Program-made: the position numbers and the translations under genes
In this document: positions 3,482 through 42,000 of the stretch, one piece after another
How positions within the stretch are numbered: the stretch's first letter is position 1
How the letters are laid out: each line of letters begins with the position of its first letter
Source of the DNA: a phage
Length of the DNA stretch: 64,000 nt
Sequence record: PZ386948.1
Strand: one strand, 5' to 3'
Notes under the pieces: model-generated
The model's database searches: none
Told to the model about the DNA's origin: nothing
Seen by the model: only the letters and a program-made list of their open reading frames with translations

Positions 3482-4168
3482 TTAAAAATCGTGGGTAGAA
3501 TCAGCTTCAAGAGCTACTACATAATTCGCATGTTCACCTTCAAATTTAGCAGCACCTTGTTTACCTTTTGCCCAGAGCAGAAGTTTATAATTTCCTGGTT
3601 GCATTTTCATATTTGCCATATTGATAATGAAATTAAATGTATTTTCACCATCATAATCACCAAGAGTCAAAGAATATTTAACACGGGTCAAAGCAGAATC
3701 TTCTACTTTATTAAAACCGTTAATTACGATTTTACCTTCTTTTACCGTGATAGCAATTGTATCAATTTGCAGACCACGAGATACACGCAACAGTTGTTGA
3801 AGGTCTTCAGCTTTAATTTCAGTAACAACAGATGCTACCGGGAATGGAATTGGTTTATTAGGAGCAACTACTGTACTCGGATCGGCTGCTGGCCAAAAAA
3901 TTGTTGAGCGGGCATCAGCAATTTTAATATTTCCATCTTCTGACTGGGAAATTTCTGCATCATCATTAACTAGCGACAGAATACCGAGAAAACCGTTCAA
4001 ATCGTAAATTGCTACATCAAAATCAATAACGTCAGAAATATTTGCTTCCGCATAAGTTGTACCATTAACTGCGCGAGTCATAATAAATTGACCGGATTTA
4101 AGCATAATACCGGAGTTAATAGTAGCGAAATTTTTAAGCAGAGCAGTAGTATCTTTAGACAGTTTCAT
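3482..4168 (-). CDS. 45: sliding clamp gp45
   Basis: 228 aa MKLSKDTTALLKNFATINSGIMLKSGQF... matches remembered T4 gp45. Confidence 0.93.
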   Translation of the reverse strand: MKLSKDTTALLKNFATINSGIMLKSGQFIMTRAVNGTTYAEANISDVIDFDVAIYDLNGFLGILSLVNDDAEISQSEDGNIKIADARSTIFWPAADPSTVVAPNKPIPFPVASVVTEIKAEDLQQLLRVSRGLQIDTIAITVKEGKIVINGFNKVEDSALTRVKYSLTLGDYDGENTFNFIINMANMKMQPGNYKLLLWAKGKQGAAKFEGEHANYVVALEADSTHDF

Positions 4169-4223
4169 GTAATTTCCTTCAATTCAAATGAGATTTAATT
4201 TTATAACTAATTTAATAAAGCAA

Positions 4224-4613
4224 TTAACGATTAAAATCAGCCGCAATTGTTTCCGCAACAATTTGAGCAGCAACAATTAGACGTTCATCTGCATTACCAC
4301 AATAATCATCTTCAAGGCGTTCACCACATGAAGTCATAATAAATTTAGCACCGGCGTTTAGGGATTCTGTAGTATGTTTGCGCATTAGTTCAATCCATTT
4401 ATTACTTACTTCACGATCGATAGCTTCATAATACGCATGACGAGCAGGTGCAGATTTAATTTTGTTCTGAATAACTTCCATTGCGTTATCAGAAAGAGAC
4501 AAAACCCATGCTCGACGAATTTTATTTTGATTTTGTGGATTTGATTCAGAACGCACGTGTTTTGGCTGAATATCTTTTACATCAACAGTATAATTCACAG
4601 TAATTTTAGTCAT
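4224..4613 (-). CDS. rpbA: RNA polymerase-binding protein RpbA
   Basis: 129 aa ORF immediately downstream (minus strand) of gene 45 as in T4; length matches. Confidence 0.7.
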
Positions 4614-4622
4614 AATACACCT

Positions 4623-4811
4623 TTAATCATAATAATCAGTAACAGTCCAAGCTTCATTTCTATTGGACATTATTTTTGTATATTCTGCTTTAAATGCATT
4701 CTTAAGCATAGATTCAGTAACTATATGCTCTTCATTAGAAAAATTATTTCTCAGAATATATCGTTTTATTTCAGGAATAGTTAATAGATGCTGTCCAGTT
4801 GAATATTCCAT
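4623..4811 (-). CDS. hypothetical protein (45.2-like)
   Basis: 62 aa ORF between rpbA and 46; position as T4 45.2. Confidence 0.5.
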   Translation of the reverse strand: MEYSTGQHLLTIPEIKRYILRNNFSNEEHIVTESMLKNAFKAEYTKIMSNRNEAWTVTDYYD

Positions 4812-4866
4812 GTTTTTCCTCCATAGAGATTATACTCTAATAAATTAAAGCATAATCTCTTATAAA

Positions 4867-6549
4867 TTAAACCATTACAGTAAATCGACCAACTTTCTTC
4901 ATTTGAAGATGCTGACCATATTCTTGCGGGTCATGGTCTTTATGTGAAATTATAAAAACATTAGTGTTTTTCATTGAATTTATAATATTAGCTACACCTT
5001 TAATACCTTCGGCATCAAATGACCCATCAAACACTTCATCGAGTATTAATGTACTAATACTAACACCAGATACAATAGAAGCAATATCACGCCAAGTAAA
5101 TAAAAGAGCAATATCAATTCGTGCTTTTTCACCTTCACTAAATGAAGCATAACTAAAATCTTCACGACCACGGGATTTAATTGTCTCATTAAATTCTTCA
5201 TCTAATGTAAACACATAATCCGCTTCCATTATTTTAAGATAATGGTTAATCTGCTTATTAAATAATGGAATGTACTTTTTAATAATAGCACCTTTAATAC
5301 CAGAATCTTTGAGCATATCAGTCAAAATTCCTCGGTGGTATTTTTCCATTACTAAATTAGTTTTTGTCTTAACAATTTTATCAAGTTCTTCTTGAAGCAG
5401 TGCTATTTCATCAGCATGGTCAATAAACTCAGAAGATGCTTTTTCTATAGCCGCTTTAACTTTTTTGGCTTTATCTACCGTCGTGATTAGAGATTGCTTT
5501 TTATTGCGAATATCATTTGCCAACGACTGTTGGGTTTTAATATTATCTCGGTATTCATCAACAAGAACTTTTAAATTATCACGATGTGTTGAAAGCTGTT
5601 CAAACGAATGCGTACATTCAGAAACTTTATCTTTAATTTTAGAAACAACTTTATCACCGGAACTCAATTGTGACAAACAGGTTGGACATAATCCACCTTC
5701 GTGATACATATTAATGACTTTATTATACGAGTCAATTTTTGATTTAATTAAAACTGCTTCTTGACCGATTTTATTAAATGCATCAGTCGGGTCTTCATCC
5801 AAAACAATATTAACTAATCTTTCGTTAGCTTCTTCTATTTCCGATTTTAGCGTTCTAGCTTCTTTTGCCAAATCATCATACATATTTTGCAGACGAGTAA
5901 GGTTGTCACCCGTTAATTTTTTCTGGCGTTCAACGTTATCATTATATATTTTAATTTGTTGGATAATACTATCTTTTTTAACATCAAGCACTTGGTTCTG
6001 CGAATTTAATTCACGTATTAGTGCTTTATTAAGCTTATCCATTTCAGCTAATGTTCCTACCTCAAGCAGGTCTTCCACAAGCTTTCTTCGCGCAGGGGTC
6101 GACAAACCCATGAAAGGGGTATACCCTGCTGTACCAAGGACAACAATCTGCTTGAAACTGGCATATGACATTCCGATAAGCTGTTCAAATTCTGCTTGGA
6201 AATCTTTACTGCTGGCAGATTCATTAAGACGTGTACCGTTAACGGTGATTTCGAAAACGTTTGGTTTTTGTCCTCTTTTGATATAGTACTTTTTCTCATC
6301 ATATTCCATCCACAGTTCAACTAAAAGTTCTTTCTTATTTGTGCTGTTTATTAATTGACCTTTCTTTACATCACGAAATGGTTTGCCAAAAAGCCCAAAT
6401 GTGATGGCTTCTAACATAGTAGACTTACCACCGCCATTTCGGCCAGTAATAAGAGTTTTTTGAACCTTATCTAATTGAATGTCAACTCCATTTTGACCAA
6501 CTGACATTATATTTTTATATTTTACTCTATTAAGTTTAAATGATTTCAT
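4867..6549 (-). CDS. 46: recombination endonuclease subunit gp46 (Rad50/SbcC-like ATPase)
   Basis: 560 aa; Walker A GRNGGGKST near N-terminus, long central coiled coil with CPTC zinc hook, C-terminal LILDEVFDGSFD signature region. Confidence 0.9.
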   Translation of the reverse strand: MKSFKLNRVKYKNIMSVGQNGVDIQLDKVQKTLITGRNGGGKSTMLEAITFGLFGKPFRDVKKGQLINSTNKKELLVELWMEYDEKKYYIKRGQKPNVFEITVNGTRLNESASSKDFQAEFEQLIGMSYASFKQIVVLGTAGYTPFMGLSTPARRKLVEDLLEVGTLAEMDKLNKALIRELNSQNQVLDVKKDSIIQQIKIYNDNVERQKKLTGDNLTRLQNMYDDLAKEARTLKSEIEEANERLVNIVLDEDPTDAFNKIGQEAVLIKSKIDSYNKVINMYHEGGLCPTCLSQLSSGDKVVSKIKDKVSECTHSFEQLSTHRDNLKVLVDEYRDNIKTQQSLANDIRNKKQSLITTVDKAKKVKAAIEKASSEFIDHADEIALLQEELDKIVKTKTNLVMEKYHRGILTDMLKDSGIKGAIIKKYIPLFNKQINHYLKIMEADYVFTLDEEFNETIKSRGREDFSYASFSEGEKARIDIALLFTWRDIASIVSGVSISTLILDEVFDGSFDAEGIKGVANIINSMKNTNVFIISHKDHDPQEYGQHLQMKKVGRFTVMV

Positions 6550-9059: not shown

Positions 9060-10261
9060 TATTTTGTAATAATGTCAAACTGTTCTTTAAAGCAGAAGCT
9101 TGAATCTTGATGCTGATACAAAAATTCATATGCTTTTTCTCGCTCACGGTCATAAAGAGCTCGGTCAGATGACAGTTCTTTAATACGTTCAAATGTTGAT
9201 TCCATATCATTTTCATCAAACCAAATGATACCGCTATCATGCGAGGTCAAAGGAGTATTATCAACACGGAATTTTAAATTTTCGCCAGTAGATTTCCAAA
9301 ATACCGGAATTGTTCCACATGCACCAAGCTCGAGATGAGTATATTCTAAAGAACGTTGTAGATATTTTTTATCCAACTTACTCAACTGATAACCAAATCC
9401 GGATTTACTCATACGTTCAAGCATTTCGCTATTTACATAACGGTCAAGAATTTGCGTTGGCAAATTAGGAGCAATTTTAATTTGGTCTACTTGATGAAGA
9501 CGATAATACTCGTATGGAATTCCTTTTTCTTTAATAGGAATGAACGCTGGAGAACGTTCCAGACCTTCCATAATAGTACTTAGTCCTGCAGGTTTAAGAT
9601 GTTTTTCGTGAAAATCAAACATCTGATAAAAACCTTTCCATGTAGTCGTACGACCAATCCAACGGTTGATATTCATGTTAATTTCAGAAACATCTTTCCA
9701 GTAGGTTGACCGAACCTTCGCAATATCCATAGGAGGCTGAAAGTTATATACTGTCGGTGCTTCTTCAATATCATCAAACAGAGAAACTGTTTCTGGATAC
9801 CATTCTTTCATCAGAACTTTATTAAAATCGCCATTATCAGAATGACTAAAAATAACATCAGCTCGACGAACAGTTTCTTCTAATCCCAAATTTCGGCGCA
9901 AAGAAAGAGAAGAATGGTCATGTTGATAAACTACAACACGAACAGAAGGTTTAATGTTATCAATAATTTTTTTATAGTTATTAATAGTGTCTTCTTCAAC
10001 CGAAGTAGCAGGAACTGAATTGATAATTAGAATATCACAATCATTTACCAGCTTAAGTGTTTTATCATATTCTTTTGCCAATAAAACCGGAATTGAAAAT
10101 GATTTATAATCATGCGCGCAATTACGAGTAAATGATTTATCTTTAGCATAAACCAAAGTTACTTCATGACCATTTTTAATAAACCAATCACGTTGCTCAA
10201 GAGAAAATTTAGTTACACCACAACCTTCAAGACCTCGAGCCATAAAAATACATACTTTCAT
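9059..10261 (-). CDS. a-gt: DNA alpha-glucosyltransferase
   Basis: 400 aa; MKVCIFMARGLEGCGVTKFSLEQRDWFIKNGHEV... closely matches remembered T4 alpha-gt. Confidence 0.85.
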   Translation of the reverse strand: MKVCIFMARGLEGCGVTKFSLEQRDWFIKNGHEVTLVYAKDKSFTRNCAHDYKSFSIPVLLAKEYDKTLKLVNDCDILIINSVPATSVEEDTINNYKKIIDNIKPSVRVVVYQHDHSSLSLRRNLGLEETVRRADVIFSHSDNGDFNKVLMKEWYPETVSLFDDIEEAPTVYNFQPPMDIAKVRSTYWKDVSEINMNINRWIGRTTTWKGFYQMFDFHEKHLKPAGLSTIMEGLERSPAFIPIKEKGIPYEYYRLHQVDQIKIAPNLPTQILDRYVNSEMLERMSKSGFGYQLSKLDKKYLQRSLEYTHLELGACGTIPVFWKSTGENLKFRVDNTPLTSHDSGIIWFDENDMESTFERIKELSSDRALYDREREKAYEFLYQHQDSSFCFKEQFDIITK

Positions 10262-10504
10262 TTAATATCCTCTTTGTTTTGGTTTATTTTACCAAAAATT
10301 TATAAAGCAATATAGGAGCCGAAGCTCCTATCCACATAATACGCCATACAGAGACTCGTTAGAACTTTTAAATTTTATGCGCTTATATGTTATAGTTCCT
10401 TCTGCTTTAGCTTTATCATGAGACTCTTTAAAGCGTCTCATCATTTCCTCTTTAGAGGAACGAATTTTATTATAATCTATTTCAGAAGTCTGGATGTTCA
10501 TCTT

Positions 10505-10711
10505 TCACAGTTGCCACCATTTTTTGACTTGATAAGAATCAACCCACACTTTCATATTAGGGTCTGCTCTTACAATAGGAGGATTAACTTCTTTAATTGA
10601 ACTATCATGGTATTCTTTTTCAGAAATTTTCACACAAAGATGACCATTCAAAGATTCAGTAAATCCTGCATTAATTTTAAGACGCTTGAATTTTACGTGT
10701 GTAAGCATCAA
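10505..10711 (-). CDS. hypothetical protein
   Basis: 68 aa ORF, overlaps neighbour. Confidence 0.35.
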   Translation of the reverse strand: MMLTHVKFKRLKINAGFTESLNGHLCVKISEKEYHDSSIKEVNPPIVRADPNMKVWVDSYQVKKWWQL

Positions 10712-10994
10712 TCATATCCTCAATTTGCGATCTAGTAGTCTTCCAAAGAATACTGATGAGTTCATCGTTATATGGCTGTTTTAGAATATCCCGACTTTTC
10801 TTGATAGCATATTCGTATTGAGCAAAATTATTGTTTTCAGCTGCGATCTGAGCGTGCTTATAAAGACGATTCAGTTCGCGTTTGTTTTTAGACAATAACT
10901 TATTTGCTTTTCTTTCTGCTTCAAGACGGTTCTTTTCTTCAATAGAAGAAATAAGCTTTTCCACTTCATCATTAATTTCGGGTTTATCAGTCAT
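10677..10994 (-). CDS. hypothetical protein
   Basis: 105 aa ORF, charged/helical. Confidence 0.45.
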   Translation of the reverse strand: MTDKPEINDEVEKLISSIEEKNRLEAERKANKLLSKNKRELNRLYKHAQIAAENNNFAQYEYAIKKSRDILKQPYNDELISILWKTTRSQIEDMIDAYTRKIQAS

Positions 10995-35871: not shown

Positions 35872-36016
35872 TTTGTTCTCTCTAGGTTTGGGCCATTCCA
35901 TGGCGCATGAATTGTCCATTTCTGTATTTACCCATTACCGCACTTGGGCTCGACCTTATTACAGGTTGGCGGGAATCCCTCACAGAATCATGAGGTCCAG
36001 GTTATTCCCATGTTAT

Positions 36017-36433
36017 TTAAATGTAAATATTTTTGCCGTAATACTTATACCAGTGTGGCTTCATTAAAATTTTTTCATCGAGTCGTTGTTGACTCAACTT
36101 AATAGCTGATTTGCATGGATTATAATCATTTTTCCATTCTACTGGAATATCGCTGATGTCAGGAACTTCAGTATCTTTTATACTGAACCCGCGTTTTAAG
36201 CATTCCGTTATAATGTCCGATTGACGCTTTCGCAAAAATTCTAACTTATCGTAAAAGAAAGTAACATGACCAGAACCTAAAATAAATTTAGAAGATATTT
36301 TAAAATCTTTAACGCGCTTACCGTTTGCCACATGCTTACGAACTATACCAAAAACACGCGGCAATTCACGGTATTCTGCGATTAAATGTTGATCAGCAAG
36401 TTCAGATACTAAAGTCAAATTAATACGAGTCAT
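36017..36433 (-). CDS. denV: endonuclease V (pyrimidine-dimer DNA glycosylase)
   Basis: 138 aa [28 protein letters not shown]... matches remembered T4 DenV. Confidence 0.9.
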
Positions 36434-36492
36434 TTTATCCCTCCAAGTAACTGTGAATATACTATCACAATTCTAGGAGAAAGTAAACAACT

Positions 36493-37023
<531 letters not shown>

Positions 37024-37479
37024 TTAAAAGAGGCTGTTCATTATTCGGTAAAGTGAAGGACCCATCACATATTGCCACTGAGTACGAGGAATAAGGGCAA
37101 AAGCATCCATCTCTGGAATCATAACACCATCTTTATTTTCAAAATAAGACTCGCAATGGCAATTTCTGAACATCTCATGCTCTACTGGAATCGTATAATA
37201 AAATAACTGTAAGTCTTTATTACTAGAATATTTAAATACACCTAGGTCTTCTAGAAGGTCTGGATTATAATTGCTAAAACCGGTCTCTTCTAAGCATTCT
37301 CTTTTTGCAGCTTCCAGTGCATTCAAATCAGAACTTTCTACGCGGCCCTTTGGAATATCCCAGCGATGTGCCATCATTCCAGGCTTACGAGAACCAGTAA
37401 CCCGACCCATAAATAAATCTTTATCTTCTGTCATAAAGATAATACCAGCTGATAGTGTTTTCATTTTAATTTCCTGCAT
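37024..37479 (-). CDS. nudE: Nudix hydrolase (NudE-like)
   Basis: Nudix box GRVESSDLNALEAAKRECLEETG; position after e as T4 e.1. Confidence 0.8.
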   Translation of the reverse strand: MQEIKMKTLSAGIIFMTEDKDLFMGRVTGSRKPGMMAHRWDIPKGRVESSDLNALEAAKRECLEETGFSNYNPDLLEDLGVFKYSSNKDLQLFYYTIPVEHEMFRNCHCESYFENKDGVMIPEMDAFALIPRTQWQYVMGPSLYRIMNSLF

Positions 37480-37652
37480 TCAGTGATAAAGTTATTTAAA
37501 TTTTGAGTATATTTCTTTTCATCAAAAATCTTTTGTTGTCTGCGTAAACGCCATGGCATTTCAATGAACATACGCCATATTCCTGATAATACTGCTGCTG
37601 TAAAAATATTAACAAGTATAGTTAAAAGAACCCAATCTCCTATTCTGTCCAT
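37461..37652 (-). CDS. small membrane protein
   Basis: 63 aa with hydrophobic N-terminus. Confidence 0.4.
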   Translation of the reverse strand: MDRIGDWVLLTILVNIFTAAVLSGIWRMFIEMPWRLRRQQKIFDEKKYTQNLNNFITECRKLK

Positions 37653-37950
37653 TGGATTTTTTTATAAAAAAGTAAAATACGAACGATGATATAGGAAGAC
37701 TAATGATATACCACAGAAGAACCTTCTTATCTGTGAACCAATCAGCATTCGTTAACTTAGCGCGACCGTTTTGAATACATACGAACTTATCATCTGTTAC
37801 AGTAAATGGCTTAGCTGCTTGATATCCCATTCTAAACTCCCTAATCAACAAATTTTTCATATCTTCGGAACAACCATTCCAGTCAACTCTATCAACTGAA
37901 ATGCCATCATCCCCATCATCTAAATCATACCAGCGAGTTTTTAAAATCAT
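37609..37950 (-). CDS. membrane protein
   Basis: 113 aa; C-terminal TM segment. Confidence 0.4.
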   Translation of the reverse strand: MILKTRWYDLDDGDDGISVDRVDWNGCSEDMKNLLIREFRMGYQAAKPFTVTDDKFVCIQNGRAKLTNADWFTDKKVLLWYIISLPISSFVFYFFIKKSNGQNRRLGSFNYTC

Positions 37951-38309
37951 TTAATTTTCCTACAATCACTCACAAACTCTTTCATTGACTCATTTTCAAT
38001 ATAAGACATGTAGCTATTATATTCTTTTAATTGTATTTTGTAATCTTTTTTTCTTTGCCAATTTATTTTAAAATTATCATAATGAAAATATAAAATGATA
38101 CCAAAGAATGAAAACAATGAAATAATTTTAGTATAACAAAGCTCACTCCAAACTTCTGTTATATTTACTGTGCCGTCGATGTTTAAAATAAGACAGTCAA
38201 TTAACAATCCAAAAAGACTACCTGCAAGAGCTGCAGCCAACGCCACAGCAAAAATTAAAAATGACTCAGAAAACGAATATTTGACTTTATTTAGTTTTGG
38301 CTTTTGCAT
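37947..38309 (-). CDS. membrane protein
   Basis: 120 aa; two hydrophobic segments. Confidence 0.4.
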   Translation of the reverse strand: MQKPKLNKVKYSFSESFLIFAVALAAALAGSLFGLLIDCLILNIDGTVNITEVWSELCYTKIISLFSFFGIILYFHYDNFKINWQRKKDYKIQLKEYNSYMSYIENESMKEFVSDCRKIK

Positions 38310-38704
38310 CGTGATTCCTTAACAAATTTCATAATTTCATCAAATTCATACGCAGCAAGTTTAAGCTGATGTTCCTTTTTAATCTTTTTACACTGTGCTT
38401 TCCAATCACGCACGCGTTTACGATAATGCCTTCCTTGATACCAGTATCCTACCCAATTTACGGGTACTAATAAAAGTGGAACTATTAATGGAAGAATTAG
38501 CATTAACACAAGTATTTCGCCAGAATCAATATCAGTCATAACATCTAAAACACCTCCAATAATCAATAGAATTACAAATGATATGAGTATAACAGGACCT
38601 ATTAACACATCAGTAGAAATTATCTGACGCTTTAATTCATACTTCAACGGTTTACTTGGAAGGTATAGTGATGGCTTTGACATATTCTCTACATTCCTTA
38701 ACAA
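38291..38704 (-). CDS. membrane protein
   Basis: 137 aa; two TM segments. Confidence 0.4.
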   Translation of the reverse strand: MLRNVENMSKPSLYLPSKPLKYELKRQIISTDVLIGPVILISFVILLIIGGVLDVMTDIDSGEILVLMLILPLIVPLLLVPVNWVGYWYQGRHYRKRVRDWKAQCKKIKKEHQLKLAAYEFDEIMKFVKESRCKSQN

Positions 38705-39266
38705 ATTTTTCTAGTAATAAATCACTTTCAAAATTGGGATTTTCTACAAATTTATCAAAAAGATCATCAACAATAGTTAAGATATTCTTTTTACTAAGAA
38801 TACGTTTATTTTCATGCTTCGTTTCAGAATCAACTATAAGAGTAAAGAAATATTTCTTGCCCTGAAATTTTACAGTAGTATCAATATAAAATAAATTTGA
38901 CTTTTGTAAATTACGTTTAAACCATGCGTCACTTAAACTATAAACACCGAGATAATCAAAATCGTCGTTTAAATAACAAACCGTCCATTCAGGAGAAATG
39001 AAATCAGTAAATTCAACATCAAAATCACACGTCAATGAATGAATTGATTCAATACTGTTAATGAGTATTCCAGGACGTATTAAAGACTTTTTACCTCTAG
39101 AAAATCTTCCGGAAAGGCTTTCATCAGTTTCATATGAAGACCCCCAATAGTAATTACGTCCTTCTGCCATGCGTTTAAGAGCATTTAGTAATTGGTCTGG
39201 AACATCAACCTGTCTTTGGAACTCTTCAAACATTGAATTGAAATCACTTTGCATTTTCATTTTCAT
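38652..39266 (-). CDS. hypothetical protein
   Basis: 204 aa ORF. Confidence 0.45.
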   Translation of the reverse strand: MKMKMQSDFNSMFEEFQRQVDVPDQLLNALKRMAEGRNYYWGSSYETDESLSGRFSRGKKSLIRPGILINSIESIHSLTCDFDVEFTDFISPEWTVCYLNDDFDYLGVYSLSDAWFKRNLQKSNLFYIDTTVKFQGKKYFFTLIVDSETKHENKRILSKKNILTIVDDLFDKFVENPNFESDLLLEKFVKECREYVKAITIPSK

Positions 39267-39286
39267 TCCTATTTACTCCAAGTATA

Positions 39287-39304
39287 AGGGGCCGAAGCCC
39301 CTTA
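39287..39304 (-). terminator. UUCG-tetraloop hairpin
   Basis: aaggggccgaagcccctt. Confidence 0.45.
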
Positions 39305-39307
39305 TCA

Positions 39308-39901
39308 TTATTTCAGAGAATTAATGTATTCCTGAACATCGGCAGAGGTAGTTTCAACCCCAGAAATATTACCGTTAAAGGTTTCAACTCGAGCAAGGGT
39401 ATCTTCAATATCAACCTTAGTCAGTGCTGCAATTTCAACTACATCATCAGCAGTACTAATTCCAAGGGCATTTGCTGCACGAGTTTCACGGATATATTCC
39501 AATTTAACTGCAAGTTCTTGGCGAGCATCATCCAATTCAACTACTTTCTTGGCGATTTCAATTCGCATTTCAGCATAACCATCAGCTTTAGTAGTCAACT
39601 GTTCAGCTGTTCGACGATATAGCAAGCCGAGTTTAGCATGCATTGTTACATCTTGACTTTCAGAAAGAAGCTTGCGAATTTCACGCTCTTTTGATTCGGC
39701 CTGTCGATTCTTTTCGACAATAAGTTCACGAATACGTTTTTCTTCATTAATAGATTTAACAGAAGCAGTTTTTAGATCTTTAATTTTATCAAGTAGTTTT
39801 GCTGCTGCAGCAGTATACTGTTCTTCGACAGATAGATTTTTAGCCATAGCAGAACCAAGTTTAGTGCGAATAAACTCAACAATTTTCTTCAGTGTGTTCA
39901 T
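39308..39901 (-). CDS. coiled-coil protein, possibly PspA/IM30-like
   Basis: 197 aa, almost entirely heptad-like helical sequence; family guess weak. Confidence 0.4.
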
Positions 39902-40189
39902 AGTATTTCCTTAGGTTGATTAAGATTTAAAATCCGTGAGAGTATTATACTCCGGATAGTTTGTAAACTATTTCAACATCGCCTTTTGCTGCTTTATAAC
40001 CTTCAGCCCAAGATATAACCGAGTTTTTATCTGAAGATTCAAATTCTGGCATTGGGCTTTCGCCAATGTTCACGCAGTATGTTTCTTCATTTTCGTCGAA
40101 CCAAATAATTAAAGTAGTCATTTATTTCTCCGTTTCTGTATTTGTTTTGATAAGTCTATAATAACACCGTCCTTGGTGTTTGTACACAA

Positions 40190-40453
40190 TTATTTCATAT
40201 TATTGAAATATTCTTCTGCGATTTCGTCGTTATCATGGTAAACTTTAGAAGACAGTTTAACATAACCTTCAGCAGTGAACATGTTAATCACAACCTTTAC
40301 AGTATACCACTGACCATCTTCATTACCCATTACTGCGTAAGTTTCAAACATCGGATGGTCAGGACCGATAACTTTAATATCATTCACTGTACGACCGAAA
40401 TCTTCTGAAACACATTTCATAAAGAAGTTGAACAGCTCACCGTAATTATCCAT
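40190..40453 (-). CDS. hypothetical protein
   Basis: Start set at MDNYGELF with GGAG RBS; 5' ORF extension is promoter repeat. Confidence 0.4.
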   Translation of the reverse strand: MDNYGELFNFFMKCVSEDFGRTVNDIKVIGPDHPMFETYAVMGNEDGQWYTVKVVINMFTAEGYVKLSSKVYHDNDEIAEEYFNNMK

Positions 40454-40496
40454 TTCATTCTCCAAGTTGTTTTCTGTATCAGTAGTTGATAGTTGT

Positions 40497-40526
40497 ATAG
40501 TACCATGGAAGGACAAGGATGTAAAC
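40497..40526 (-). promoter_or_regulatory. early-type promoter (GTTTACA-17-TGGTACTAT)
   Basis: Same motif family, upstream of ORF start 40453. Confidence 0.5.
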
Positions 40527-40659
40527 CGTTTTGTGAAAAAATTTTTAAAAAGTTTTGGGGAATTCTAGGGCAGGAAGGGGAAATCAAAGGATAGGATAAT
40601 ATATTATAAAGGGTAGAAACTAAATGATGTCTAGAGAGGCCTGGAAAGGCCTAGATACC

Positions 40660-40687
40660 AAAAAGCCCCAACCTTTCGGTCGGGGCT
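40660..40687 (-). terminator. intrinsic terminator, copy 1 of repeated hairpin
   Basis: aaaaagccccaacctttcggtcggggct; GC stem plus U-tract on minus strand; identical copy at 41205-41232. Confidence 0.6.
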
Positions 40688-40694
40688 AAGAATG

Positions 40695-41168
40695 TTATTT
40701 GATTTGTTTAGCAGACCAAATGCGATCTTTAATAATTTTTTGGATGTCTTCAACATACACAAGAGAGTGAGCATGTGGATTATCTTTGAAACTATAAGCA
40801 CGAGCTAGTTTTTGGCCTTCAGTTTTGATTACTAAAAGCTCTTTAAGGATAGCTTCATATTTGGAGATAATTCCTTTAACAATATTTTTTTCTTGTGCAG
40901 CTTTAGGATCTGCTTTAGGAGCAGGTTTACCCGAAGCCTTTGCAAAAGCAGCGCCAGTAGCAACTAAACTTTTCCAGGCCATACTAACTGCATTTCCCGT
41001 AAATCCTTCCGCTTTCATGTCGCGTGCGAACTGGAATCGCGATTCATCAGAAGCATCTTTATAAGAATATTTACCCGCTGCAATGGCTGCTTTTGCGACA
41101 GCTTGAATTTCGGTGCTAGATGCTTCATTTAACACCGCTTCATTTAAAAATTGAGTATATGATTTCAT
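40695..41168 (-). CDS. internal-protein-like ORF with capsid-targeting-like N-terminus
   Basis: 157 aa; N-terminus MKSYTQFLNEA resembles T-even internal-protein targeting sequence MKTYQEFIAEA; Ala/Lys-rich. Confidence 0.45.
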   Translation of the reverse strand: MKSYTQFLNEAVLNEASSTEIQAVAKAAIAAGKYSYKDASDESRFQFARDMKAEGFTGNAVSMAWKSLVATGAAFAKASGKPAPKADPKAAQEKNIVKGIISKYEAILKELLVIKTEGQKLARAYSFKDNPHAHSLVYVEDIQKIIKDRIWSAKQIK

Positions 41169-41204
41169 CTTATTTCCTGTTTTAATTCGTGGTTTTAATA
41201 TACT

Positions 41205-41232
41205 TATTTATACTAAAAAGCCCCAACCTTTC
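41205..41232 (-). terminator. intrinsic terminator, copy 2 of repeated hairpin
   Basis: Identical 28-nt sequence to 40660-40687. Confidence 0.6.
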
Positions 41233-41251
41233 GGTCGGGGCTAAGCCTTGC

Positions 41252-41550
41252 GGCAACCTTGTCGGGGTTCCACCTGCTAAGGCAAGTGTTTGTACGAAAC
41301 GCCGGGATTCGAACCCGGTTATTAAGCAGTTGACGCTACTCAATATTTTTAAAAGGCCATATCTCGACCATATCCGAACGTTCCGTCAAAAACGCTACTC
41401 GGCTTACGGCAAAGATATTTCCTCGAATCGATAATTCGGTGCGCCGTTTCTGCTGTGATGTAAGAGGGCATCAATAAACGCAAAGATTATTAACGCAATT
41501 CCTTACTCAGGGAACATCAGTCCGACGACTTACCGGTAGCGACCCGGTTT
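41252..41550 (-). ncRNA. candidate structured small RNA
   Basis: ~300 nt without ORF; minus-strand perfect T-arm-like hairpin CCGGGUUCGAAUCCCGG; intrinsic terminator at 41205-41232. Confidence 0.35.
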
Positions 41551-41551
41551 C

Positions 41552-41902
41552 TTAATATTCTTTTAAAGCATCAATCTGTTTACGGCGTTCACGCCATAAA
41601 TCAATTGCTTCATACGCGGATTCAACATTTCGAATTGGACGGCATTTATATAAAGATTTGTGATTTTGATATTGCGTAGATAACGGAATTTTATCTAAAA
41701 GGTCTTTACGTTCAAAGTATTCGTAACCATCTAAGCCAAATGAACGATTTTTGAGAAATTGCCAATGACCAAATTCGTTTTGAATATAAATATAATCCGC
41801 ATGTTGATAAAGTAAATTAATTTCACGAAATGAGATATGTTTTTCATATTCATTGAAGTAAAATGTTAAATCATGAACTACTAAATAAACATTACCTTTC
41901 AT
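41552..41902 (-). CDS. hypothetical protein
   Basis: 116 aa ORF adjacent to tRNA-Arg. Confidence 0.45.
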   Translation of the reverse strand: MKGNVYLVVHDLTFYFNEYEKHISFREINLLYQHADYIYIQNEFGHWQFLKNRSFGLDGYEYFERKDLLDKIPLSTQYQNHKSLYKCRPIRNVESAYEAIDLWRERRKQIDALKEY

Positions 41903-41920
41903 ATTTTCCTCACTTATAAT

Positions 41921-41996
41921 TGGTCGAGGCAGTAGGGATCGAACCTACGACCTAGGACTTAGAAGGTCCTTGCTCTTCCTTCTGAGCTATGCCCCG
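41921..41996 (-). tRNA. tRNA-Arg (anticodon UCU)
   Basis: Minus-strand cloverleaf read by eye: anticodon arm AGGAC-CUUCUAA-GUCCU, T-arm GUAGG-UUCGAUC-CCUAC, encoded CCA. Confidence 0.8.
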
Positions 41997-42000
41997 TAAT

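Follow-up and report, generated by a model that had tools for sequence, protein, structure and literature searches.

Organization of the e.2–e.6 locus

The stretch of phage DNA analysed here (sequence record PZ386948.1, 64,000 nucleotides, referred to as the window) contains a cluster of minus-strand genes between positions 37461 and 39901, which correspond by position and similarity to e.2, e.3, e.4, e.5 and e.6 of phage T4. Shigella phage CM8, a Tequatrovirus of the T4-like type, is matched with 100% identity over positions 36000–42000, and the number of T4-like records that match exceeds 800. In T4, e.2–e.6 are located upstream of nudE, e (lysozyme) and denV. Our analysis centres on e.6, whose 197-aa product we identify with high confidence as a true, very divergent homolog of the PspA/IM30/Vipp1 family, and on a C-terminal tail shared by the products of e.2–e.5.

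Six open reading frames (ORFs) had been picked out here in an earlier reading of the sequence (the original prediction), as four small membrane proteins next to a 204-aa protein and an almost fully helical, possibly PspA-like 197-aa protein. All six are present at the coordinates given there and represent genuine genes rather than chance reading frames; each matches a PHROG family of its own (E 1e-28 to 1e-110, function unknown), and the T4 orthologs have been detected as RNA and protein (PMC9697503). Direct searches of e.2–e.6 against Pfam, NCBIfam and PADLOC gave nothing significant. In Kyte-Doolittle profiles (19-residue windows), the four small ORFs possess strong hydrophobic segments, as had been expected, with peaks of 1.96–3.04: one segment each in the 63-aa and the 113-aa ORF, and two each in the 120-aa and the 130/137-aa protein. 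By the same measure, no strong segment was found in the 204-aa and 197-aa proteins. The number of small membrane proteins, however, had been overestimated, as the 63-aa and 113-aa ORFs match one family (phrog_2203) and belong to a frameshifted e.2. The cluster is composed of three genes for proteins with two transmembrane helices (2-TM; e.2, e.3 and e.4, of which e.2 is broken here), the soluble e.5 and the helical e.6. Its features are as follows.

39308–39901, minus strand: e.6, 197-aa phage PspA/IM30/Vipp1-like (ESCRT-III superfamily) protein
39284–39305, minus strand: GC-rich stem-loop with UUCG loop (AAGGGGCUUCGGCCCCUU) between e.6 and e.5, read from the sequence
38652–39266, minus strand: e.5, 204-aa soluble alpha/beta protein, fold unassigned
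38688–38705, minus strand: e.5 tail motif FVKECR (residues 188–193)
38291–38683, minus strand: e.4, 130-aa 2-TM inner-membrane protein with annotated ATG at 38683 and a basic, predicted cytoplasmic tail
38291–38704, minus strand: longer e.4 ORF, 137 aa, with TTG start
38309–38326, minus strand: e.4 relaxed tail motif FVKESRC
37947–38309, minus strand: e.3, 120-aa 2-TM inner-membrane protein
37959–37976, minus strand: e.3 tail end FVSDCRK, predicted cytoplasmic, strict motif match
37609–37950, minus strand: e.2 N-terminal fragment, 113 aa, with an acidic soluble domain, the first transmembrane helix and out-of-frame residues
37657–37663, minus strand: A7 homopolymer run, +1 frameshift site in e.2, from DNA alignment
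37461–37652, minus strand: e.2 C-terminal fragment, 63-aa ORF with the second transmembrane helix and predicted cytoplasmic tail, Kyte-Doolittle peak 2.14
37473–37490, minus strand: e.2 tail end FITECRK

The two hydrophobic peaks reach 2.85 and 3.04 in e.4, which matches phrog_2604 (E 5e-71), and 2.47 and 1.78 in e.3, which matches phrog_2330 (E 1e-58). In addition, e.3 weakly matches the e.4 family phrog_2604 at full length (E 0.0011). The genes e.5, e.4, e.3, e.2 and nudE overlap one another, an arrangement that implies probable translational coupling, while e.6 is set apart from e.5 by the strong UUCG hairpin. This stem-loop may act as a partial terminator or as an RNA-stabilizing hairpin. 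Our terminator scan picked it up on the opposite strand only, because the coding strand has no T-run after the hairpin; in phage PhAPEC2, a putative terminator is annotated at the equivalent site. A scan for sigma-70 promoters gave no enrichment (22 versus 16.4 ± 4.1 in shuffled sequences).

Homology and predicted structure of e.6

The relationship of e.6 to PspA was assessed with two alignments: A1, composed of CM8 e.6 and close relatives (30 members, at least 47% identity), and A2, to which distant e.6 relatives were added (40 sequences, down to 17% identity). Among 1.84 billion representative proteins, a search with the e.6 profile had yielded no more than 45 relatives, all of about 195–209 aa and co-linear. 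In an hmmsearch of A2 against the sequences of the Protein Data Bank (PDB), Synechocystis Vipp1 was matched with E 7.5e-5 over residues 1–146 versus 1–147, eight of the nine top matches were chains of the Vipp1/PspA family, and E. coli PspA was aligned over 1–137 versus 1–138. Profile–profile comparison by hhalign of A2 with nine enterobacterial PspAs plus Vipp1 gave a probability of 92.9% and a score of 49.9 over 169 columns (e.6 1–175, PspA 1–170). The PspA side of this comparison is narrow, as the homolog search gave enterobacterial PspAs only, with at least 86% identity. The reversed A2 profile scored 19.1 with a probability of 1.2%, and forty column shuffles scored 12.3 ± 2.5 (maximum 21.2), with a probability of at most 2.5%. 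When the A2 profile was rotated, the true register, N-terminus to N-terminus, was recovered at every circular rotation. In the hhalign alignment, e.6 is about 14% identical to E. coli PspA.

A second line of evidence comes from family members that bridge e.6 and PspA. Two of them pass the Pfam gathering cutoff of PF04012 (PspA_IM30; 33.9 bits), P0066 with 39.0 bits and P0065 with 35.1 bits, and P0067 and P0068 both score 22 bits. P0066 and P0065 match the e.6 profile at full length (E ~1e-20), and BLASTP aligns CM8 e.6 with P0066 at E 2e-12, with 24% identity over 194 aa and one gap. After removal of the five closest bridging members, A2 still reaches 84.5% over 170 columns. Moreover, when all 566 ORFs of T4 were searched with a PspA/Vipp1 hidden Markov model, e.6 came first (E 0.087) and was the sole ORF aligned over more than 100 columns.

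Several results have to be set against this homology. CM8 e.6 and all 30 members of A1 gave no match to PF04012 at E up to 10, and the compositional-bias term is high in the HMMER matches of A2 to PDB sequences. With close members only (at least 30% identity), the hhalign probability drops to 6–8%, so the link between e.6 and PspA depends on profile diversity. A phmmer search with e.6 against PDB sequences found no match, the A1 profile reached Vipp1 only below threshold (E 1.7–3.9, co-linear over 4–143 versus 4–145), and hhalign of A1 with a single PspA sequence gave 0.5%.

Another reading is that e.6 is a generic coiled coil or helical hairpin (perhaps BAR-like, SMC-like or a scaffold), which would resemble PspA by coiled-coil composition. 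The reversed, shuffled and rotated controls show a match specific for register and order, the alignment starts at residue 1 of both proteins, full-length relatives that pass the PspA_IM30 cutoff are linked to e.6 by BLASTP at 2e-12, and an amphipathic N-terminal helix is predicted at the PspA position. The controls together with the Pfam bridge largely exclude a generic coiled coil, to which we give very little probability.

The AlphaFold2 (AF2) model of e.6 agrees with PspA-family membership. The protein is predicted to be nearly all helical, as had been supposed, with an N-terminal helix (residues 2–21), a coiled-coil hairpin (25–80 and 86–145) and three short C-terminal helices. Foldseek with this model returned Vipp1 at ranks 1–8 (probability 0.98–1.0), and the hairpin superposes on 6zvs_A at 3.2 Å over 123 columns. 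CdvB2 and Snf7 are also among the structural matches. The likeness to ESCRT-III proteins of this kind is at the level of fold, as Snf7 (PF03357) gave no Pfam match with e.6 or the A1 members. The N-terminal 18-mer of e.6 is amphipathic, with a hydrophobic moment (muH) of 0.45 compared with 0.49 in PspA and 0.61 in Vipp1, and cationic (+4); across the e.6 family the mean moment is 0.42 at the N-terminus versus 0.26 in other windows. The model thereby places an alpha0-type amphipathic helix at the PspA position, and the predicted alpha1 plus alpha2/3 hairpin followed by short helices corresponds to the ESCRT-III fold. The guess of PspA likeness is borne out by the profile match of A2 to Vipp1, by hhalign with its controls, by the Pfam bridge and by Foldseek. 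Both transmembrane predictions and PspA similarity are found at this locus. We count fold and homology of e.6 among the demonstrated results, not among the inferred ones.

At its C-terminus, the e.6 family, including the Ackermannviridae members, has a conserved peptide [EQ]-Y-[LI]-x-S-L-K (window 39308–39330), in which Y192 is nearly invariant and which follows a low-confidence linker. By analogy, this peptide could be a docking motif comparable to the MIM tails of ESCRT-III proteins.

By tblastn, e.6 is present as a single copy per genome in 1,105 phage records, covering Tequatrovirus, Mosigvirus, Karamvirus, Biquartavirus, Pseudotevenvirus, several genera of Klebsiella phages and a Morganella phage (24% identity). 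The bridging PspA_IM30 proteins are from Ackermannviridae, for example gp064 of Klebsiella phage May (Taipeivirus); they already carry the PF04012 tag in the source collection and are named "hypothetical" or "tail completion protein" in GenBank. T4-type e.6 proteins are listed there as hypothetical or, from RAST, as "host specificity protein". The two functional labels come from automated annotation, with examples among e.6 homologs at locus L004 (2208–2801) and in Klebsiella phage UPM 2146, and look like propagated errors, because no family library backs either. They are also all that speaks for e.6 as a virion or host-range component: no similarity to tail or fibre families was found in Pfam, PHROGs or NCBIfam, the gene lies in an early region and is transcribed early, and both fold and sequence are PspA-like, which makes such a role hardly credible.

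Downstream of the PspA_IM30 gene of phage May lie genes for a 186-aa protein with a transmembrane anchor and for a 60-aa hydrophobic protein. The Ackermannviridae have a second, independent PspA-plus-membrane-protein arrangement in phages. The PspA_IM30 gene sits among replication genes (DnaB-type helicase, DNA ligase) in these genomes, at 4151–4881 of locus L026 (May) and 5650–6383 of locus L024.

In the literature searched, whose coverage is incomplete, no earlier account of PspA likeness for a protein of T4-like phages came to light, and the reference papers on the PspA/Vipp1 family that were searched do not mention phage-encoded members. The product of e.6 is a previously unrecognized divergent member of the PspA family, less divergent phage homologs of which had already been captured by Pfam.

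The shared C-terminal tail and the split e.2 gene

The proteins encoded by e.2–e.5 have similar C-termini: NFITECRKLK in e.2, EFVSDCRKIK in e.3, KFVKESRCKSQN in e.4 and KFVKECREYV... in e.5. The motif F-[IV]-x-x-C-R-[KR] is present in strict form in e.2, e.3 and e.5 and in relaxed form in e.4, and this similarity is newly noticed here. We defined the tail-sharing set by the presence of F-[IV]-x-x-C-R-[KRGE] among the final ~20 residues, on the side of the membrane that the positive-inside rule assigns to the cytoplasm, and e.2–e.5 all belong to it. From the distribution of charges we infer that the tails face the cytoplasm, the same side as e.5 and e.6. Strict F[IV]..CR occurs three times in the 166 ORFs of at least 50 aa in the 64-kb window, each time at the C-terminus of e.2, e.3 or e.5, compared with 0.028 expected occurrences. 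In the complete T4 genome (566 ORFs), only e.3 and e.5 have the strict motif; with the relaxed form, e.4 and a single incidental match in tk join them, and the frameshifted remnant of T4 e.2 also bears the tail.

In Mosigvirus, Klebsiella phage Roth68, Cronobacter phage Pet-CM3-4 and Aeromonas phage avDM5, the gene after e.6 ends in the same tail, which is also found on several nearby 2-TM or small soluble proteins. The proteins at the e.5 position are only 15–17% identical, and their invariant residues are one Asn together with F188, C192 and R193 of the tail. The proteins e.3 and e.4 share ~40 tail residues (hhalign 89%, 40 columns), and e.2 shares the last ~14 only. Full-length paralogy of e.2 with e.3/e.4 is therefore unsupported, the match being limited to these ~14 residues. 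In CM8, the codons of the motif coincide in part with the ribosome-binding site of the gene that follows. The tail as a mere by-product of an embedded Shine-Dalgarno sequence for coupling was rejected as a full explanation, because the Shine-Dalgarno falls in different codons from gene to gene, with the Arg encoded by AGA, CGA or AGG, and because the motif persists in distant phages in which the next gene lies 30–70 nt downstream. Judged on the sequences, the tail is a real protein-level motif, confined in T4 to this cluster and conserved in distant genera.

One of the tail-bearing genes, e.2, is split in the window. Its family, phrog_2203 (166 aa), is matched consecutively by the 113-aa ORF (positions 1–107) and the 63-aa ORF (positions 106–166). 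DNA alignment shows that Yersinia phage PYPS2T has A6 at the site of the CM8 A7 run and a single intact 2-TM e.2 of 162 aa. The A7 run, A6 in the intact allele, shifts the frame by +1 and gives rise to the two ORFs with their 44-nt overlap, which are halves of a single gene and not two proteins. In its intact form, e.2 combines a soluble N-terminal domain with two transmembrane helices and a basic tail, a membrane architecture like that of e.3 and e.4. No obvious Shine-Dalgarno precedes the ATG of the 63-aa ORF, whose 3' end runs into the nudE start. Two alternative nudE starts lie within the codons of the e.2 tail (GAATGCAGGAAATTAAAATGA, 37461–37490): the T4 annotation uses the upstream ATG (151 aa) and that of CM8 the downstream one (146 aa), which the e.2 stop overlaps (ATGA).

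The same run varies elsewhere. Where it could be located in a sampled genome with intact e.2 (five genomes), its length is A6; CM8 has A7, and T4 and vB_EcoM_F1 have A5. T4 e.2 has a second, compensating 1-nt insertion, with a stop between the two compensating indels. In phage FL34, e.2 is broken at another site, and PP01 and T2 have no e.2. The A-run is a recurrent frameshift hotspot. An IMG/VR scan for A5, A6 and A7 alleles yielded two A6 contigs only, too few for frequencies. Among ten Tequatrovirus genomes, e.2 is frameshifted or deleted in five and e.3 frameshifted in one, and e.4, e.5 and e.6 are intact in all ten.

These data bear on the possibility that e.6 is a true PspA/IM30 homolog while e.2–e.5 are functionally unrelated accessory genes for superinfection exclusion, anti-defence or host takeover. 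Adjacency would then result from the tight packing of non-essential early genes in T4, and the tail would target another common partner, such as a host factor, a protease, a chaperone or a phage enzyme. Such independence would fit the strong hairpin between e.6 and e.5 next to the overlapping e.5–e.4–e.3–e.2–nudE row, the occurrence of e.6 without tailed neighbours in EC-F1, Morganella phages and Ackermannviridae, the frequent breakage of e.2 but never of e.6 in the ten genomes, and the assignment of phrog_2203 to the category "moron/host takeover". It is harder to reconcile with the order of e.6 followed by a tail-bearing gene at the e.5 position, kept in four divergent genera despite 15–17% identity, with the absence of the strict motif elsewhere in the T4 genome, and with the classical pairing of PspA-family genes with small membrane partners. 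We consider unrelated neighbours a serious contender, with a probability somewhat short of even.

On the minus strand, two identical terminator-like hairpins (AGCCCCGACCGAAAGGTTGGGGCT followed by TTTT) are located at 40664–40687 and 41219–41242, flanking a 157-aa ORF (40695–41168; phrog_2280, function unassigned) at a place where T4 has no gene. This ORF may have been inserted as a cassette together with a terminator, or the terminator could have been duplicated. At 39945–40121, also on the minus strand, a 58-aa ORF of CM8 (phrog_5461) replaces the unrelated 111-aa e.7 of T4, and the segment from e.6 to e.8 is a variable slot among Tequatroviruses. Upstream of e.2–e.6, the tRNA cluster of CM8 (68156–69591 of the record; 9355–10790 of locus L001) is broken by two endonuclease genes of 609 nt each, one SegB-like GIY-YIG and one HNH; at this place T4 has only segB.

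Possible role of e.6 and comparison with known systems

T4-type phages shut off host transcription, and the host psp response is inducible and dependent on sigma-54 and PspF. The host psp response should therefore be unavailable in a T4-infected cell. Our favoured model overall, which we hold to be somewhat better than an even bet, is a phage-borne, PspA-like maintenance of the inner membrane with tailed adaptors. By analogy with PspA, the cationic amphipathic alpha0 of e.6 would attach to the host inner membrane on its cytoplasmic face, and the hairpin would polymerize into carpets, rings or rods. Such a polymer would make leaky or stressed membrane tight and keep up the proton-motive force, and an early-expressed phage copy would stand in for the host psp response. 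The membrane is at risk during genome injection, superinfection, holin accumulation with lysis inhibition, and attack by membrane-depolarizing abortive-infection systems. That e.6 acts as a membrane-stabilizing or membrane-remodelling polymer in the infected cell is, taken by itself, slightly favoured over the contrary.

In the same model, e.5, e.4, e.3 and e.2 would be interchangeable adaptors or membrane anchors docking through their tails to one common partner. This partner would most economically be e.6 itself, as PspB/PspC or LiaI are partners of PspA and LiaH. Because this role is drawn from adjacency, the shared tail and the analogy to PspBC/LiaI, we treat the tailed neighbours as possible, rather doubtful, partners of e.6. 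The membrane-associated module proposed in the original prediction, for which superinfection exclusion, lysis timing or envelope-stress mimicry had been suggested, is plausible, because the neighbours are 2-TM proteins that share a cytoplasmic tail with e.5 and because PspA-plus-membrane genes recur in Ackermannviridae; as a functional unit it is a hypothesis.

Published T4 data place the genes in time. All of e.2–e.8 fall into the early RNA class, and at the protein level e.4 and e.5 count as early, e.2 and e.6 as middle and e.3 as late (PMC9697503). Early transcription argues against a purely late lysis role. Although T4 is the best-studied of all phages, genome-wide studies of 2022–2025 still describe e.6 as of unknown function (PMC9697503, PMC11879866), as does the CRISPRi-ART study for e.2–e.8 as a whole (PMC11879866).

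Other findings count against the favoured model. CRISPRi-ART knockdowns of T4 e.2–e.8 were scored "Not Fit", which means no fitness effect in the laboratory (PMC11879866). Scans of e.2–e.5 with Pfam, NCBIfam and PADLOC revealed no homolog of PspB, PspC, PspF, LiaI or LiaF nearby. Contact between e.6 and the tailed proteins is conjectural. With e.2 broken or deleted in five of the ten genomes, at least this gene is dispensable. Finally, e.6 lacks a tail-bearing neighbour in Enterobacter phage EC-F1 and Morganella phage Mm5, and the neighbours of PspA_IM30 in May and other Ackermannviridae are without the tail motif.

The likeness to PspA could also be used in the opposite sense, with e.6 as an antagonist or mimic that co-polymerizes with or caps host PspA, or binds PspF, PspB or PspC, in line with the envelope-stress mimicry considered at first. 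The fold and N-terminal region are those of PspA, whose N-terminal region mediates membrane and PspF contacts in E. coli, and expression is early. T4, however, rapidly silences host transcription, which leaves little obvious value in manipulating a transcriptional response; the ~14% identity to E. coli PspA makes co-polymerization less likely, and the family is kept in phages of diverse hosts. We regard antagonism as improbable.

Returning to membrane maintenance, a bolder version, which we rate as unlikely, is that T4-like phages encode a self-contained ESCRT-III-type remodelling system. A polymer of e.6 would be steered by e.2–e.5 through the shared tail docking peptide and would keep the membrane energized in the face of depolarizing abortive-infection defences, superinfection damage and premature holin firing. 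If this is true, phages would have a novel class of device for counter-defence or for lysis timing.

The PspA/Vipp1-type identity gives a concrete candidate function to a gene found once in each of ~1,100 sequenced Straboviridae genomes and, less diverged, in Ackermannviridae. It suggests that large virulent phages may carry a membrane-repair effector of their own since they silence the inducible one of the host, and it bears on how T4 keeps the membrane energized during lysis inhibition and copes with membrane-targeting defences. In addition, e.6 brings a viral branch into ESCRT-III superfamily evolution, and the shared tail of e.2–e.5 offers an easily mutable handle for finding a common partner.

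Among T4 proteins, Imm, Sp, RI, RIII and RIIA/RIIB are comparable to e.2–e.6 in being small, early or middle, non-essential and active at the infected cell's inner membrane; they differ in that no sequence relationship to e.2–e.6 was found and none has the tail motif. In the LiaH–LiaI system of Bacillus and the PspA–PspB/PspC system of E. coli, a PspA-family gene likewise adjoins genes for small inner-membrane proteins with cytoplasmic tails. In contrast to LiaI, PspB and PspC, to which e.2–e.5 have no sequence similarity, the phage proteins share a unique tail, and one of its bearers (e.5) is soluble.

The Ackermannviridae PspA_IM30 proteins (for example May gp064) are true homologs of e.6, with 24% identity at full length, ~200 aa and a C-terminal YLASL, and a membrane-protein gene follows theirs as well. 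They differ in being close enough to cellular PspA for Pfam, in having neighbours without FIxxCRK and in their replication-gene setting. Eukaryotic and archaeal ESCRT-III proteins (Snf7/CHMP, CdvB) resemble e.6 in the helical-hairpin core, whereas they have no sequence-level match to it, and no gene for a Vps4-type ATPase or MIT domain was identified near e.6.

The differences from PspA and Vipp1 themselves are the low identity (~14–17%), the position of CM8 e.6 under the Pfam threshold, its encoding by a virulent phage without PspF/PspB/PspC partners, a more cationic alpha0 (+4), its own C-terminal Y-[LI]-x-S-L-K, and the lack of the C-terminal extension of Vipp1. The likeness lies in the same elements in the same order and positions: an amphipathic helix of ~20 residues is followed by a turn and then by a hairpin of ~120 residues, whose tip lies near residues 80–86. 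The most conserved block of e.6 falls on the LAREALARKK block of PspA at the start of helix 2, its short helix "ARVETF" aligns with "ARFESF", and the lengths are 197 and 222 aa. With its predicted N-terminal alpha0, e.6 possesses the element typical of the bacterial branch of ESCRT-III.

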